A stretch of DNA of 35,885 nucleotides from a virus (Duplodnaviria; Caudoviricetes): positions 1 through 35,885 of IMG/VR virus record IMGVR_UViG_3300037483_000262, one strand, 5' to 3'. Below are positions 1,772 through 25,322 of this stretch, piece after piece. Position 1 is the first letter of the stretch. Each line of letters opens with the position of its first letter. The translations under genes and the position numbers were made by a program. The notes below the pieces were generated by a model, which saw nothing but the letters and a program-made list of their open reading frames with translations, was not told the origin of the DNA and made no database searches.

Positions 1772-3133
1772 ATGCAGATTCCCGTACACTTCGATCCGCG
1801 TTGGTATCAAGCTGAAGCACTACGAGCTCTTGAGAACGGCGTAACTTTTGCGGCTTGGTGTTGGGCGCGTCGAGGCGGTAAAGACTTCACAGCTTTCGGC
1901 TATGCGGTTAAGAAGATGGTTGAGCAGCCGATGGGAGTCGCGTTGGTGTTCCCAACCAAAGAGCAGGGCCGCGAGGCGTTTTGGGACAACGTAGAAAATG
2001 ACGGCTTTAAGACCATTGAGCATATCCCGAAGCAGCTTATCAAACGATTCGATAACAAAGATATGAAAATTAGCCTTATAAATGGCTCGACCTTCTCTCT
2101 TTTAAGTGCGCGTGATCCGGACGCATTGCGTGGTGCGAACGCCAAGCTTTATATTTTTTCCGAGTTCGTGGACATTGACAGCTATGCCCTGGACGTCGTT
2201 GAGCCGGTTACAGATAACAACGGCGGCCAGATTATCATTCAAAGTACACCAAAAATCGATGGTATCTCTGGTGGTATGTTCAAAATTCTATTCGATCGGG
2301 CCAAGAAAACAAAAGGTGAATTTTCTTCTCTCATAACCGCAAGAGAATATCTATCGGCCGAAAAACTTGAATCAATCCGGCAACGACATATCGCTAAGTA
2401 TGGCAATGATTTCAAATTCAAGCAGGAATATCTTTGCGATTGGGGCCAGGCGGGAACGGCTTCATACTATGGCGCCATTCTTAAAATGATGGAAAAAGAC
2501 GGCCGAATTGGTATGCACCCCTATAACCCAGGCTTTCCGGTGTACACCGCTAGGGACTTAGGTATGTCCGACAGCACAGCCGTCGGCTTCTTCCAGTATT
2601 ATCTTGTGAATGGCAAGCCGAAGGTCCGTATAATCGATTACTACGAAACCCACAACGTCGGCCGAAAAGCTATTATCGCAGCCGTAGCACAAAAACCTTA
2701 TAACCTTGCCTGGCACTTCTTCCCCCATGATGGTTCGGTGCGGGACAGCGACGCCATTGCCAGGATTGAGAAGTACCGCGAAGACGGCTTAACGAATAGC
2801 TCGTTGCTACGGCGGGAGCCGGTGGACGACGGAATCAACCGCGTCGTCGAAAGCTTCGGGGACACTCTGATTCATAACCCGACTTGCACACCATTGATCC
2901 GCAAGTCTTATCTCTATAAAAGGAAATTCAACCCGCTTACTGGCGACTATTTAGGGCCAGAGCACGACTCCGCGTCGCACGCAGCCGATATGTTGCGCTA
3001 TATTTTTGTGGCTATTGACCAAGAATTTAATAAAGAAGCCTGTGAAATGTATCTCTCACAGGCTTCTCAAGACGATGTTTACGAGTCGGCTATGCCGACG
3101 ACAGCGATCTACTCACCTTCCGGTGCTGGCTGA
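1772..3133 (+). CDS. terL: Terminase large subunit
   Basis: PRWYQ adenine-binding motif, Walker A WARRGGKD, DALRG followed by Walker B-like YIFSE, coupling motif STP, FKQEYLCDW, nuclease motifs DLGMSDSTA, PHDG and SHAADMLRY. Confidence 0.95.
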   Translation: MQIPVHFDPRWYQAEALRALENGVTFAAWCWARRGGKDFTAFGYAVKKMVEQPMGVALVFPTKEQGREAFWDNVENDGFKTIEHIPKQLIKRFDNKDMKISLINGSTFSLLSARDPDALRGANAKLYIFSEFVDIDSYALDVVEPVTDNNGGQIIIQSTPKIDGISGGMFKILFDRAKKTKGEFSSLITAREYLSAEKLESIRQRHIAKYGNDFKFKQEYLCDWGQAGTASYYGAILKMMEKDGRIGMHPYNPGFPVYTARDLGMSDSTAVGFFQYYLVNGKPKVRIIDYYETHNVGRKAIIAAVAQKPYNLAWHFFPHDGSVRDSDAIARIEKYREDGLTNSSLLRREPVDDGINRVVESFGDTLIHNPTCTPLIRKSYLYKRKFNPLTGDYLGPEHDSASHAADMLRYIFVAIDQEFNKEACEMYLSQASQDDVYESAMPTTAIYSPSGAG

Positions 3134-17424: not shown

Positions 17425-17530
17425 TGCTCCAACCTTTCTCGAGATCATAGTGATACTCGTTAACGTGCCGCGTCAAGGCACTTTTGCTTTTAACTTGCCG
17501 CCAACAATGGGGACATTCAAAATACGTCAT
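17381..17530 (-). CDS. Micro-protein with a classical C2H2 zinc finger
   Basis: MTYFECPHCWRQVKSKSALTRHVNEYH; ATG at 17530 overlaps the end of the glycosyltransferase gene. Confidence 0.65.
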   Translation of the reverse strand: MTYFECPHCWRQVKSKSALTRHVNEYHYDLEKGWSNEEVKPKEKTTMGN

Positions 17531-18272
17531 TGTTCTTCTCTCGGTAATATTTAAGAATTCGCTTCTGCATATTATTTTTCCAGCGATTAGCCTGATCTTT
17601 TTCCTTCCGGTCCATCGTAACAATCTTGCCACCATGACCTCGCCGACCCAGGCGAGCCGCGTGACTCTCTAAGCGACGCAAATACATAGTGCAAGGTACA
17701 TCAGTCTTGACGAAGCGTGCGCCGGCTTCCACTAAATCAGCCACAAAAGGCGCATTGGGATAATCGTGAGGCTTGTATGGATACTTTTCCCAAAAGCTCC
17801 GACGAAACGGCGAGTGGCCGACAATAAAGCCCTTGCCGCGATATAGAGTCGCCATTTCCTCCGGCGTCTTAGGAATATGAGTCAATACTTTGGACCGGCG
17901 CCACATCGCCTTTGACTGCCACATGATACAAATATAATCAGCCTCCGCTTCCAGCCGAGCATATTCATCGATGGCGTCAGGCAACAAAACATCATCAATA
18001 CTCAAATATTGAATCCATTCGGTTTCGCTCTCATTAATTGCAGCATTTCGCATTGGCCCCATAAGAGGCTTTACTCTTTCGCAAAAATGAAATTGCAAAT
18101 CAAGCATAGAATATTTATCCAATAGCTCGTTGTAATTTTCCAAGCCGTGATCCTTGCCGAGCGCTATAATCACTTTGGTAGGCAAAGTCTTGCTCTGCGA
18201 AATAGCCTCAAGCCATTGATTCGCGAACCGGCCATAATCGTTATAGGCAATAGTTACAATAGCGATATCCAT
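17517..18272 (-). CDS. Glycosyltransferase, GT-A fold (family 2-like)
   Basis: IAIVTIAYN, WLEAISQS, MRNAAI, EWIQYLSIDD (DxD-like). Start at 18272 is TGATG-coupled to the nitroreductase gene. Confidence 0.85.
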   Translation of the reverse strand: MDIAIVTIAYNDYGRFANQWLEAISQSKTLPTKVIIALGKDHGLENYNELLDKYSMLDLQFHFCERVKPLMGPMRNAAINESETEWIQYLSIDDVLLPDAIDEYARLEAEADYICIMWQSKAMWRRSKVLTHIPKTPEEMATLYRGKGFIVGHSPFRRSFWEKYPYKPHDYPNAPFVADLVEAGARFVKTDVPCTMYLRRLESHAARLGRRGHGGKIVTMDRKEKDQANRWKNNMQKRILKYYREKNNDVF

Positions 18273-18856
18273 CACACGTCCATCTTGTCGATTAAGTTTC
18301 GCTTTTTTTCGATCGGCTCGGGGTGCGGATACCCAAATATGAAGGCGCCACAAAATACCGCACCTTCCTCCCAACCCTCCGGCGTGAACCGTTGGTAGAA
18401 AAATTCCTTGTTCTCGTCGCGGATATTCGGATTAATAAACGCACAATGGAGGCCAAGCGCTGTTGCCATAAGCGAAAGCTGCTGGACCATCACGCCGGCG
18501 TCAATATAGCTGTTGTAGTTAATTTCACGGCCACCATCAGCCTTGTAAGCGACCGGATCAGCCATCAGAAGAAAAATCATCGGAGCGCGGTAAACCCAAC
18601 CGGTCCCGCCGACCAATAGGCCGTCGAGTAGGTCTTTGTCGTTCCGCTCGGTAATGATTTTTATTCTCACGCCATGCCGGTCGCAACTGCTCGGGCAATG
18701 CTTCACGCACTCGAGCAAATCTTCAACGTGTTCTTTGCTGACTGCCAAAGTATCGAACCGGCGATTACTGTGGCGTTCTTTCATAAGAGCGATAAGCTCC
18801 TGCTTTTTCCCAAACTGCTGATGAAGTTCGTAACGTGGTTGATATGGATCACCCAT
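18272..18856 (-). CDS. Nitroreductase-family flavoprotein
   Basis: RHSNRRF, CPSSCDRHG and DAGVMVQQLSLMATALGLHCAFI...FGYP motifs. Confidence 0.9.
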   Translation of the reverse strand: MGDPYQPRYELHQQFGKKQELIALMKERHSNRRFDTLAVSKEHVEDLLECVKHCPSSCDRHGVRIKIITERNDKDLLDGLLVGGTGWVYRAPMIFLLMADPVAYKADGGREINYNSYIDAGVMVQQLSLMATALGLHCAFINPNIRDENKEFFYQRFTPEGWEEGAVFCGAFIFGYPHPEPIEKKRNLIDKMDV

Positions 18857-20738: not shown

Positions 20739-21998
20739 TTAAGCTGTTCGCTTCCACATATAAACTACGATGTATGGTTGCAAGTTATTGTGGGCGCCAC
20801 CACCGCCGGTACTTGTAGTGTTGGTCGCAGCCGGAGCCGTACCACTAGCATTACCGGTTCCGCTGACTACGTTATAGGTAATGTTTCGGTTTTGACTTGT
20901 TAATCCCCTAAAGCTACTAAAGCCGTCCATGCTTCCGTGTATATGAGCCGGCATTTCTGCGCTTGTAAGAGCATGGGTTTTTGCACCGCCAGTTTCTTCA
21001 GCCGTATCAAAGTCTGTGTCACCTGAATCCCGACCAACTAATACGCGACCAGCACCAAACGCTACCCAAGTGCCAAAGCCGAAAAGCGTATTCGGATTAG
21101 TTGAAACGATTGAAGTATAAATTGAGCCAACCGGATAGACGAGTGGCAATATCGCTCCGGCGTCGCCAGGTGGACCCTCTGGACCTTCGGGACCTTCCGG
21201 ACCAGTCGAGCCTGTTGCACCGGTTTCACCCTGCTCGCCTTGAACGCCCTGCGTACCCTGGATTCCTTGAATACCTTGCTCGCCTGGATCGCCTTGCGGA
21301 CCTTCAGGTCCAGTTGGACCGGTAGCTCCTGTCGCGCCAGTTTCACCCTGAATCCCCTGATCACCTTCCGGTCCAACCAAAGAAACCGGAATCCCCCAAT
21401 CACCCGCCGTTTTTGGCCCATACAGTTCGTTGGTAGCAGTATCCAAATAAAAATCACCGTCCTCGCCTTCAGTTGTAGGCGCAACCGCACCGCTTAATAT
21501 CGTTCTGCCGTCGGCCCCATCATTACCAGCAGCACCAGTTTCGCCTTGAGGTCCTTGCGCCCCTGTTTCGCCCTGTTCACCCTGGGAACCAGTTGCGCCT
21601 GTTTCACCAACCAACGAAGTCGGATCACCCCAAGACCCCAATGTTTTCGGGCCATAAAGCGTTGACGCACTCGTATTAATATAAAAATCACCATTGCTAC
21701 CCACCCCGCCGGAAGGATTTGACGCACCACTAAGAAGCGTCCTACCATTCACCCCATTTGTACCGTCCTCGCCATCTTCCCCTGCTGGACCAGGATCACC
21801 CTGCGGGCCGGCAGGTCCCTGCTCGCCAACCACTCCAACAGAATTCAAAATTGAATGGCCGTTCATGTCCAAATCGCGGTCCATTTCAATCGGCACTTCA
21901 GTTCTTGGCGGTATCGGGGGACTTAGGGTCTGATCGTGGGCCGAATTAAAATAAGCTTCAGCTTGTGCCGCCTCAATAATCTCATCTTCAGGAGGCAT
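20739..21998 (-). CDS. Collagen-like tail fibre protein
   Basis: Gly-X-Y repeats; two GRTxLSG...GDFY...LYGPK repeats; C-terminal YPVGSIY...GTW...GRVLVG...[17 protein letters not shown] tail/baseplate domain. Confidence 0.85.
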
Positions 21999-22225
21999 TA
22001 CTCTAACCCCGCAACAGTTCGAAGCTGCGAAATATTATAGCCAATCATGCCGGCTTTCGTTTCTGCGTTATAGACTAACGGCACGGAAAAACCGAACTGT
22101 TTCGATAGCTCCTCATACTCACTACCCTCCGCTTCATGCACCTCAAAATCCACTCCAATATGAGCCAAATATTTAATAACCATCGGGCAGTACGCACAAT
22201 TTGGCCGCTTAAAAATCTTAATCAT
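21998..22225 (-). CDS. Glutaredoxin/NrdH-like redoxin
   Basis: [13 protein letters not shown] (CxxC), FSVP cis-Pro motif, MIGY; start at 22225 with GGAGG RBS. Confidence 0.85.
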
Positions 22226-22455
22226 GCTGCCTCCGGCGGTTCTGGTAATGGCGTCGATTCGAGGGCTGGTGGTAGATCGGGAGCCGGCGACATAGTGGTA
22301 GTGCGACGATAAGCTTCGAGGCAAGCGGCGCCAACCTCGGGAGCCATGCGCCCCGATAGCACAGCGTCATGTATGCCGTCCTCAATCGTAATCTGTTCAG
22401 CCTCACGAAGTCCCCGATCGATAGATTCAACCGCTCTAAGATGTCGCTTGCTCAT
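22222..22455 (-). CDS. Small hypothetical protein
   Basis: Start MSKRHL at 22455 after a GGGGGA RBS; ATGA overlap with the redoxin gene. Confidence 0.6.
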   Translation of the reverse strand: MSKRHLRAVESIDRGLREAEQITIEDGIHDAVLSGRMAPEVGAACLEAYRRTTTMSPAPDLPPALESTPLPEPPEAA

Positions 22456-23223: not shown

Positions 23224-23252
23224 TTGACAATTAATAATCCATTTGGTATACT
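23224..23252 (+). promoter_or_regulatory. Strong sigma70 early promoter TTGACA-17-TATACT with extended TG
   Basis: TTGACA at 23224-23229; TGG-TATACT at 23244-23252. Confidence 0.85.
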
Positions 23253-24064: not shown

Positions 24065-24351
24065 TGTACACAATCATAAGCGCAAAGCGATTAAGCAACG
24101 GCGCCGGCGGGAGTGATATATTCACCAAGTCCGGCCAGGTCCGAAAGGATTGCAACGTCACAACTTTCGATGGTACGCCGGAAGAAGCCAAAGCCTACCT
24201 GGACACGATCAAATACCAGGCGACCGGCAAGCCGTATGTCTTCACTCATATCGAAGGCCGCGATCTGTTCAACTGCCGAAGTATAGTCAGGCAAGATGTT
24301 AACGGCCTGATCTGCTCACCTCAAAAGCTGGCTGATCTGCTAGGAGTGTAA
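24064..24351 (+). CDS. Hypothetical protein
   Basis: 95 aa; RBS AAGGAG; TAATG overlap. Confidence 0.75.
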   Translation: MYTIISAKRLSNGAGGSDIFTKSGQVRKDCNVTTFDGTPEEAKAYLDTIKYQATGKPYVFTHIEGRDLFNCRSIVRQDVNGLICSPQKLADLLGV

Positions 24352-24416
24352 TTGATGGACCTGTGGCCGGAAGTCCTTAAAAGCCGGATCAACCATAACA
24401 AATAAAGGAGGGTATA

Positions 24417-24710
24417 ATGTCTACACTGTCAAGCTATAAGCTAGACTTTGAGGAATTACCCCTAAAAACCCGAAAGGGTGGGAAGGACAGTAAAATGTCA
24501 AAAGCAAACCAGACTGAAGCACCCGCTAAAGTCTACAACAAGACCCGAGGCGAGCACGTCAAAGACGTTATGATCGCCGTTCTGGTCGCTAGCATAATCG
24601 CCTTTATTGGCGGTATGCAGTTCGCTAACAAGCAAAACGCTACTGTTAGCGAGGCGGTGAAAGCCGTTACATTAACACAAGACGCCGAAGCGACCTCCCT
24701 AAAAAAATAA
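24417..24710 (+). CDS. Membrane-anchored protein (possible N-terminal part of a frameshifted transglycosylase)
   Basis: TM helix VMIAVLVASIIAFIGGMQFA; RBS AAGGAGG; alternative start at 24495; ends CTA AAA AAA TAA. Confidence 0.75.
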   Translation: MSTLSSYKLDFEELPLKTRKGGKDSKMSKANQTEAPAKVYNKTRGEHVKDVMIAVLVASIIAFIGGMQFANKQNATVSEAVKAVTLTQDAEATSLKK

Positions 24711-25087
24711 TGGGGGCCGCTCCTCCGGAAGTGGAGGAGGTCAAAGCACCCCCTCTTACTGGCTGTGAGGCTGTGCGAGCGGAAATCGCCGAGTATGGCG
24801 GTTGGGACGTGAATCTGGTGGCGGCAATAGCCGAAGCCGAGAATCGGGCCTGTAATCCGCTCAAGCATAATCTAACGGCAAGCGAAACACACCGCCGGCG
24901 CGACGGATCAGTGATATGCGTCGGGAGCTATGGAGCTCTACAAGTGGGGTGCTTGCACTACCGCGAGGGTGAGGACCGCAATGACTTGAAAACCAATGTC
25001 AAAGTGGCTCACCGAGTTTGGGAGGGATCGGGCTACACGGCCTGGACAATGTACAAAAACGGAACATATAGGGAGTTCTTAAAATGA
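24710..25087 (+). CDS. Lysozyme-like / SLT lytic transglycosylase domain
   Basis: VAAIAEAEN (candidate catalytic Glu), SYGALQV, NVKVAHRVW...GYTAW. Confidence 0.8.
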   Translation: MGAAPPEVEEVKAPPLTGCEAVRAEIAEYGGWDVNLVAAIAEAENRACNPLKHNLTASETHRRRDGSVICVGSYGALQVGCLHYREGEDRNDLKTNVKVAHRVWEGSGYTAWTMYKNGTYREFLK

Positions 25088-25248
25088 GATATTACTATTT
25101 GGAGCGGCCTTCCCGACTTAAACGGAACGCCGGTCGATCATTTTGGACGATACTGGCCCTGCTAGTGTTGCTCATGCTATGGGACGCGCTATTCAATAAC
25201 TGCGGCTGGTTCATTAATTTAATAATATGGAGTTCGGAGCGAATATGA
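25084..25248 (+). CDS. Small membrane protein (54 aa, not in ORF track)
   Basis: MRYYYLERPSRLKRNAGRSFWTILALLVLLMLWDALF...; ATGA overlaps at both ends. Confidence 0.65.
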   Translation: MRYYYLERPSRLKRNAGRSFWTILALLVLLMLWDALFNNCGWFINLIIWSSERI

Positions 25249-25322
25249 AAACATTTATCGTAAGGCTGGTAATCGGAGCAATCGCTCTTGGTATTGCTGC
25301 GCTATTTACTATGGGAGGCTAG
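25245..25322 (+). CDS. 25-aa hydrophobic peptide (not in ORF track)
   Basis: MKTFIVRLVIGAIALGIAALFTMGG; GGAG RBS; ATGA overlap; fills the gap up to the helicase start. Confidence 0.6.
   Translation: MKTFIVRLVIGAIALGIAALFTMGG

Follow-up and report, generated by a model that had tools for sequence, protein, structure and literature searches.

A short membrane protein and a lysozyme-fold domain are encoded in overlapping frames by phages and prophages of Saccharibacteria, and sequence comparison makes it very probable that programmed -1 frameshifting joins the two into an anchored lysozyme-fold fusion. The arrangement was followed from the window, the whole stretch of 35,885 nucleotides of viral DNA analysed here, to its relatives. 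An earlier note on the window had proposed a programmed -1 frameshift producing a membrane-anchored fusion, and this proposal finds strong support in sequence conservation, in relatives that are naturally fused in frame and in the lack of other start sites in most clusters. In Saccharibacteria phages from the environment and from the human mouth alike, the frameshift would set the dose of a wall enzyme bound to the membrane.

The cassette in the window

Most of the terminase, major head, tail-fibre and primase genes of the window are on the minus strand, whereas its plus strand has SNF2, Dda/Pif1, Sak4 and YqaJ genes. The cassette is found in the replication operon, upstream of the SNF2 and Pif1 helicase genes. 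A sigma-70-like promoter match (23224..23252, plus strand, 11/12) is located upstream of this operon; six such sites were found versus 4.1 expected, and the match is weak by itself. Unlike the structural genes around it, which are on the minus strand, the terminase large subunit gene (1772-3133) is on the plus strand. The phage also has minus-strand genes for a glycosyltransferase (PHROG 9549), a nitroreductase and a glutaredoxin (17517-18856 and 21998-22324).

The membrane ORF, in the 0 frame of the plus strand, is SD-led and encodes 97 aa in its long form (24417..24710), ending as Leu-Lys-Lys-stop. A second in-frame SD-led start gives a short form of 71 aa (24495..24710, plus strand). A single transmembrane helix is predicted at residues ~51-69 of the long form (24567..24623, plus strand; hydropathy 2.32 over 19 aa), with boundaries set by hand. 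The ORF closes with CTA AAA AAA TAA (24699-24710), a tract including seven A (24701-24707), and the stop and the next ATG overlap as TAATG. The putative slippery site CTA_AAA_AAA (24699..24707, plus strand) holds the NYA_AAA tetramer (24701-24704) within an A_AAA_AAA heptamer, seen directly before TAA as the earlier note had it. A two-tier 3' stem-loop (24712..24753, plus strand) begins 7 nt past the first AAA codon and 4 nt past the heptamer. The -1 frame is open from 24650 to TGA 25087, and its plus-strand segment 24707..25087 encodes a Pro/Ala-rich linker and an SLT_3-like lysozyme-fold domain with four invariant Cys; the invariant Glu44, the predicted catalytic acid (alignments A1 and A4), corresponds to 24839..24841, plus strand. 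Gene callers place the start of this ORF at ATG 24710, and no SD is found before that ATG in the window sequence. The lysozyme-like ORF had been described as lying in the -1 frame, open over the site and devoid of an SD of its own, and all these traits are seen.

The window alone proves nothing, because the GC-rich hairpin (-22.4 kcal/mol) folds as had been described but is not significant by itself (z -1.58, 15 of 200 shuffles equally good), and A7-TAR occurs once where 0.71 occurrences are expected. A second study provides a 641-nt contig (run X2, covering 24346-24983) that includes the A7 run without any indel; the run length, which the note had wanted checked against reads, is identical. 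The contig differs from the window at six positions just 3' of the hairpin, every one of them a synonymous third position of the -1 frame. Run X1, which may be the source of the window, is left out of this comparison.

Two hydrophobic ORFs of 54 aa (25084..25248) and 25 aa (25245..25322) follow on the plus strand, both with ATGA overlaps, the latter before the SNF2 helicase gene. The chain of tiny coupled membrane ORFs noticed earlier is therefore present in the window, but it is little shared: a small hydrophobic ORF follows the lysozyme frame in 11 of the 33 clusters defined below, and a second one is seen in the window alone.

The predicted fusion is 223 aa long from 24417, close to the ~220 aa originally estimated, or 197 aa from 24495, the other SD-led start. 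A pair of SD-led ATGs separated by 10 or more codons is found in 13 of 28 untruncated clusters. Those of the window are 26 codons apart; dual-start clusters share a similar leader, and several have a small hairpin ahead of the second SD. Dual start and frameshift combined could give four products. A Met-Lys-Met dual start like that of lambda S was considered, and is present in L001 only.

Conservation of frame, slip site and downstream helix

Scans of viral, metagenome and genome contigs yielded 173 loci, many of them redundant, and 174 were examined with the window. Sixteen are truncated, two did not score, and in 156 a hydrophobic ORF overlaps the domain frame in -1. The -1 overlap of membrane and lysozyme-fold ORFs, which the earlier note had proposed to follow across homologues, is hence kept in 156 of 158 untruncated loci. 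The exceptions, L122 (unrelated DNA in place of the anchor) and L143 (indels within the anchor ORF), still carry the slip site. At 75% junction identity the 156 loci form 33 clusters, and a homologous membrane ORF is found in all of them (alignment A5).

Twenty-three further loci were analysed. Eleven, among them duplicates of L079 and L194, show the -1 overlap. Natural in-frame relatives, also among the checks suggested at the outset, were seen in DNA at eight (L185, L186, L203-L207, L209), where the anchor is fused directly to the domain. The remainder are a -1 copy with an internal stop (L196), one truncated locus and two other proteins. Broken prophage copies comprise, besides L196, the truncated L232 and L233. 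A search from the anchor side recovered L219, again with a lysozyme domain in the -1 frame. Eleven of 38 anchor-profile loci were examined; weak matches in genomes (L231, L235, L236, L240, L242, L243) and in viral contigs (L220, L221) turned out to be unrelated membrane proteins. A viral scan with P0181 gave no match.

In a midpoint-rooted tree built from 118 columns of 74 domains (with many unresolved forks; duplicates and L208, L209 and L211 left out), frameshifted genes fall in three separate clades, and at least three changes are needed on the starred branches. Three host-chromosomal in-frame genes (L204, L205 and L207, in G018, G325 and G318, respectively) are nested among frameshifted phage genes in the tree, and adjoin lemA and/or H+-pyrophosphatase genes. 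Their place in the tree points to a possible domestication, with the frameshift lost.

An in-frame A_AAA is found within the overlap, 9 codons or less from the stop, in 33 of 33 clusters. For A_AAR the figures are 33/33 clusters versus 61/351 control ORF ends; the site rule was chosen after data inspection and the clusters are related, so that p values overstate the case. The slip-site Lys codon is AAA in every cluster, and the preceding codon is always NYA (GTA in 13, TTA in 12, TCA in 4, GCA in 2, ACA and CTA in 1 each). The A run is A7 in 17 clusters, A6 in 3 and only A4 in 13. Conservation of the heptamer had been expected; what is kept throughout is the tetramer, and since perfect heptamers are limited to 24 of 33 clusters, NYA_AAA is regarded as the conserved core. 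The arrangement is seen on three catalytic subclades, and some of the further loci feature perfect A_AAT_TTA or T_TTA_AAA heptamers. The anchor is 20-28 codons from the site in 32 of 33 clusters, including those in which the stop is 7-8 codons further. Upstream SD-like stimulators of the dnaX/IS911 type are not enriched (4/33 versus 20/165 controls). Two other mechanisms were discarded: slippage at the last codon before the stop for L004, L005, L081, L082 and the CAG-TAG clusters, and hopping from the stop codon onto a downstream Lys codon because of L003, which has none within reach.

The first stable helix begins 4-8 nt downstream in 26 of 33 clusters, at exactly 7 nt in 15, compared with 192 of 660 control positions. 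Pairing probability averages 0.02-0.40 in the seven bases next to the AAA codon and then climbs, to 0.81-0.94 for bases 8-12. Against synonymous-codon shuffles that keep the -1 protein, junctions fold with a median z of -2.2, and 19 of 33 are below -2; inside the domain the same test gives a median of -0.36, with 0/33 below -2. In 14 junctions, including those of the window (-1.68) and of the oral clusters, z is above -2. In 17 of 28 junctions the junction's own 3' arm is among the three best partners, out of 28, for its 5' arm, and in 6 it is the best; for L064 it ranks 27th.

Four stimulator layouts are distinguishable. They include heptamer-stop-hairpin, tetramer-stop-hairpin, a stop-containing hairpin (L028, L030) and a long-range layout (L004, L005, L081, L082, L099), in which the site is 7-8 codons before the stop and a ~110-nt helix encloses the stop, its first arm being 7-8 nt past the site and the partner ~110 nt downstream. 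In these five clusters the long-range helix is 95.6% paired, with compensatory changes at 3 of 9 pairs; slid controls reach at most 55.6%, and 27 of 500 shuffles match the pairing, the basis being five sequences. The stem covariation sought at the outset is thus seen as compensatory changes in the long-range helix; for hairpins, RNAalifold found no consensus pair in a sequence-only MAFFT alignment of 19. At the A_AAT_TTA loci L193, L195, L197 and L199 the first helix is 15-27 nt away. The hairpin loop keeps CTGACC in L001, L013, L020, L079, L095, L098 and L106, where stems differ; a protein constraint (Thr-Asp) or a tertiary contact are both possible reasons.

One fusion or two proteins

The -1 frame is conserved, coding and without an independent start in most clusters, although the synonymous excess in the linker is weak (43/122 alleles versus 32 expected). 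Ribosomes might nevertheless terminate and start afresh at the TAATG overlap, or at GTG or ATA, releasing a free lysozyme domain. The window has the TAATG overlap, gene callers list the domain as a protein of 89-138 aa, and an ATG is found in the linker of 6 of 33 clusters, some NTG codon in 26. Start codons are however scattered: no ATG occurs between the site and the first Cys in 27 of 33 clusters, so that TAATG re-initiation, the outcome that the earlier note had named as fatal to its proposal, is no general explanation, and 7 of 33 have neither ATG nor GTG nor TTG. A free domain would lack an export signal despite its four invariant Cys, as a hydrophobic N-terminus is found in 0/120 close homologues of 89-138 aa (the best 120 of 173). 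Among longer distant homologues it is found in 82 of 104, a count that leaves out 4 proteins >400 aa. Re-initiation also leaves unexplained the invariant NYA_AAA 8 codons or less before the stop and the helix 7 nt behind it, and is judged quite improbable. Word searches for longer homologues, with the domain at 220-2000 aa and the anchor at 126-2000 aa, gave none, which is weak evidence; in the clade of the window itself, no in-frame fusion is present among the best 120 of 173 near-length matches.

Slippage of the polymerase, one extra A in the transcript making the fusion in place of the ribosome, fits the A7 run of 17 clusters and predicts the identical frame relation. In Thermus, dnaX relies on slippage of the polymerase, and two Lys tRNAs are present as in these hosts (PMC5009743). 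A run of only A4 in 13 of 33 clusters and of A6 in 3 makes such slippage very improbable, and the ribosome is a better fit both for the phase of the run and for a downstream helix 7 nt away. Still another view is that the break is an assembly error, or that a once-fused gene is decaying. The homopolymer at the break and the broken prophage copies (L196, L232, L233) would be in line with this. The break is identical, however, in 156 loci from three collections, a degree of conservation that excludes the homopolymer error feared in the earlier note; the second-study contig is identical over A7 and has synonymous changes only in the -1 frame, and catalytic residues are invariant. The chance that error or decay accounts for the arrangement is put at next to nothing.

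In the frameshift model, tRNA-Lys(UUU) would re-pair from AAA to the -1 AAA once the helix, 4-8 nt downstream, is encountered. At heptamers the slip may be tandem; in the window, tandem and single slips would lead to the same junction. Most ribosomes would stop, releasing a membrane peptide of 57-100 aa, and a minority would slip. The fusion would export the Cys-rich domain, itself devoid of a signal, leaving the enzyme membrane-anchored and outward-facing. The frameshift would act as a dose limiter, holding a wall enzyme that could kill the cell at a constant, small fraction of an abundant anchor-only partner, in analogy to the G:GT ratio of tail chaperones.

A_AAA was the weakest of six shifty tetramers in E. 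coli, and yet is used by IS elements (PMC4066793), so a low fusion ratio is expected. The ribosomal protein bL9 was not found in any of the 151 class genomes searched (positive controls detected in 10 of 14), in line with PMC8406219. Loss of bL9 raises -1 frameshifting in E. coli (PMC6815119), and its lack may raise the output of A_AAA in these hosts. Both Lys tRNAs are found in 5 of 5 hosts (by ARAGORN on two loci); the dedicated tRNA-Lys(CUU) would explain why the site has AAA and not AAG.

Known -1 frameshift signals comprise Z_ZZN tetramers, NNA_AAG hexamers and X_XXZ_ZZN heptamers (PMC4066793 and PMC5009743). The cassette shares with IS3/IS1-family elements and dnaX an in-frame A_AAR, a near 3' helix, and a short 0-frame plus a longer -1 product, but has AAA in place of AAG, lacks an upstream SD stimulator, features several helix architectures within one family and encodes a membrane-anchored wall enzyme. 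With lambda G/GT and Ig-like capsid and tail extensions it shares a phage -1 frameshift conserved despite low similarity and a set ratio of short to extended protein (PMC5009743); it differs from lambda G/GT in being outside the tail/head operon, in its membrane protein and in having an enzyme domain as the extension. The position typical of a G/GT tail-assembly chaperone is not found, the cassette being in the replication operon and not between major tail and tape-measure genes. As in Sindbis virus 6K/TF, a transmembrane helix lies at a narrow distance upstream of the slip site. The Sindbis spacer is of 44 aa (residues 748-791; PMC8682741) versus 20-32 here, so that pulling by the translocon of the Sindbis type is not supported. 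The mechanism class is well known (PMC5009743). A search of main texts, with most subscription journals outside it, turned up no use of it for a membrane-anchored wall enzyme, no account of this family and no frameshifting reported for Patescibacteria, and the word "frameshift" is absent from PMC13578794 and PMC13059738.

The known conserved phage frameshifts concern, to our knowledge, virion assembly. The cassette offers a natural, testable case of recoding on bL9-less ribosomes, together with a range of natural stimulators around a single minimal slip site. It also puts right the annotation of an entire family that is at present entered as two hypothetical proteins.

Enzyme, hosts and possible purpose

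The model of the window domain (pLDDT 77.9) belongs to the lysozyme superfamily. It matches insect lysozyme 1gd6 (Z 9.0, rmsd 2.9, 98 aligned), MltF (Z 7.9), EtgA (Z 7.8) and Slt70 (Z 7.3), and by Foldseek hen lysozyme HEWL (E 1.4e-3). Atlas neighbours of the domain are SLT_3 at 0.96. The window protein has no Pfam match at E<=1, and a PDB sequence search with the domain gave nothing meaningful. A close relative, P0106, scores 20.9 bits against Pfam SLT_3 (PF18896), below the cut-off of 27; several distant relatives exceed the cut-off, as do the frameshifted relatives L195 and L200. Profiles A1 and A4 align at E 1e-39. Glu44, at the end of the first core helix, is invariant in 63 of 63 sequences of A1, and the matching Glu in 29 of 29 of A4. 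A second acid, Glu59, is conserved, being Asp in 86% of A4; at the position of Asp52 of c-type lysozyme the domain has Ser. Four Cys are invariant. The domain, labelled lytic transglycosylase in the earlier note, is SLT_3-like and predicted to cut peptidoglycan, as either a transglycosylase or a muramidase. SLT_3 proteins with N-terminal anchors share fold and catalytic Glu with the cassette, which splits anchor and domain by the frameshift.

Genome matches are all in Saccharibacteria (11/11), and the domain is found in 18 of 401 class genomes. Carriers span environmental and human-oral Saccharibacteria phages and prophages, and by kinship with them the host of the window is inferred to be a member of the group, which fits the epibiont first guessed. 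The one named phage among the carriers is TM7 phage DolZOral124_53_65 (MG269973.1, CDS CQ476_31), in which the cassette has the long-range helix. In its record the membrane ORF (17967-18227; L212 1196-1456) is labelled "lysozyme-like domain protein", and the lysozyme frame (17584-17922) has no CDS and no annotated frameshift. In G208 C1 two identical-scoring copies of the cassette (511068-511651 and 546861-547444) are 35.8 kb apart, about one phage genome length; a terminal repeat and a tandem prophage are possible readings. A SNF2 helicase resembling that of the window is found in the fetched flank of 14 of 38 loci. The cassette is the first phage gene after a host rsmD or TPR gene in L167, L168 and L163, and has a strong sigma-70-like promoter just upstream in 7 of 22 clusters versus 7 of 86 control windows. 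The "early operon" of the earlier note applies only to the clade of the window; elsewhere the cassette either opens the prophage or forms a separately promoted unit.

Given the frameshift, we tentatively favour, at somewhat less than even odds, that the enzyme would remodel the wall of the host itself, early in infection or in the lysogen. The stalk of 45-75 aa makes the wall of the Saccharibacterium the most likely substrate. Superinfection exclusion, in which the abundant peptide would block DNA entry and the rare fusion alter or mask the wall, is possible though rather unlikely. Membrane-anchored exclusion genes are known at prophage ends, and the cassette directly follows a host rsmD or TPR gene in L167, L168 and L163 and has a promoter match of its own in 7 of the 22 clusters, but the membrane ORF matches no known family, and the chromosomal relatives beside lemA and H+-PPase genes (L204, L205, L207) suggest wall housekeeping.

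That the enzyme would act on the wall of a partner bacterium, the prophage improving attachment or feeding, is unlikely. Saccharibacteria are epibionts, the lysozyme-like domain is predicted to be exported, and stalks have up to 52 extra residues in oral clusters; yet a tether of 45-75 aa would reach only ~15-25 nm, and chromosomal relatives have shorter stalks. SAR endolysins feature an N-terminal Ala/Gly-containing helix plus a lysozyme fold, and the cassette product is alike, but a secreted endolysin of this type, or a lysis accessory, is quite improbable. The cassette is in the replication operon, several basic residues lie ahead of the helix, and MG269973.1 has a separate amidase gene. 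A CHAP/NlpC-like gene (below the Pfam cut-off) and a holin-like gene are paired ~7.8 kb off on the opposite, late strand, in agreement with the 8 kb from the lysis cassette given in the earlier note, so that the position expected of the SAR class is not found.

A broader and doubtful idea is that of a portable module of anchor plus frameshift for bL9-less ribosomes, in which an A_AAA too weak for most bacteria, interchangeable helices (the ~110-nt long-range one among them) and swapped lysozyme-fold domains would dose a surface enzyme. If true, the dosed enzyme would reshape the wall of a tiny host or of its partner; no earlier recoding system would then have been described for CPR ribosomes, and their fidelity could be read out directly with this one. 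The cassette may also help in studying how the envelope of epibiotic bacteria is altered by phages.

Some minor features of the contigs are worth recording. In prophages L167 (4351-4732) and L168 (near 4311) the end that adjoins host rsmD has no integrase gene, and many viral contigs start ~700 nt ahead of the domain. ARAGORN identified a tRNA-like element with an unreadable anticodon in L166 (8379-8458), L168 (8043-8122) and L172 (8068-8147).
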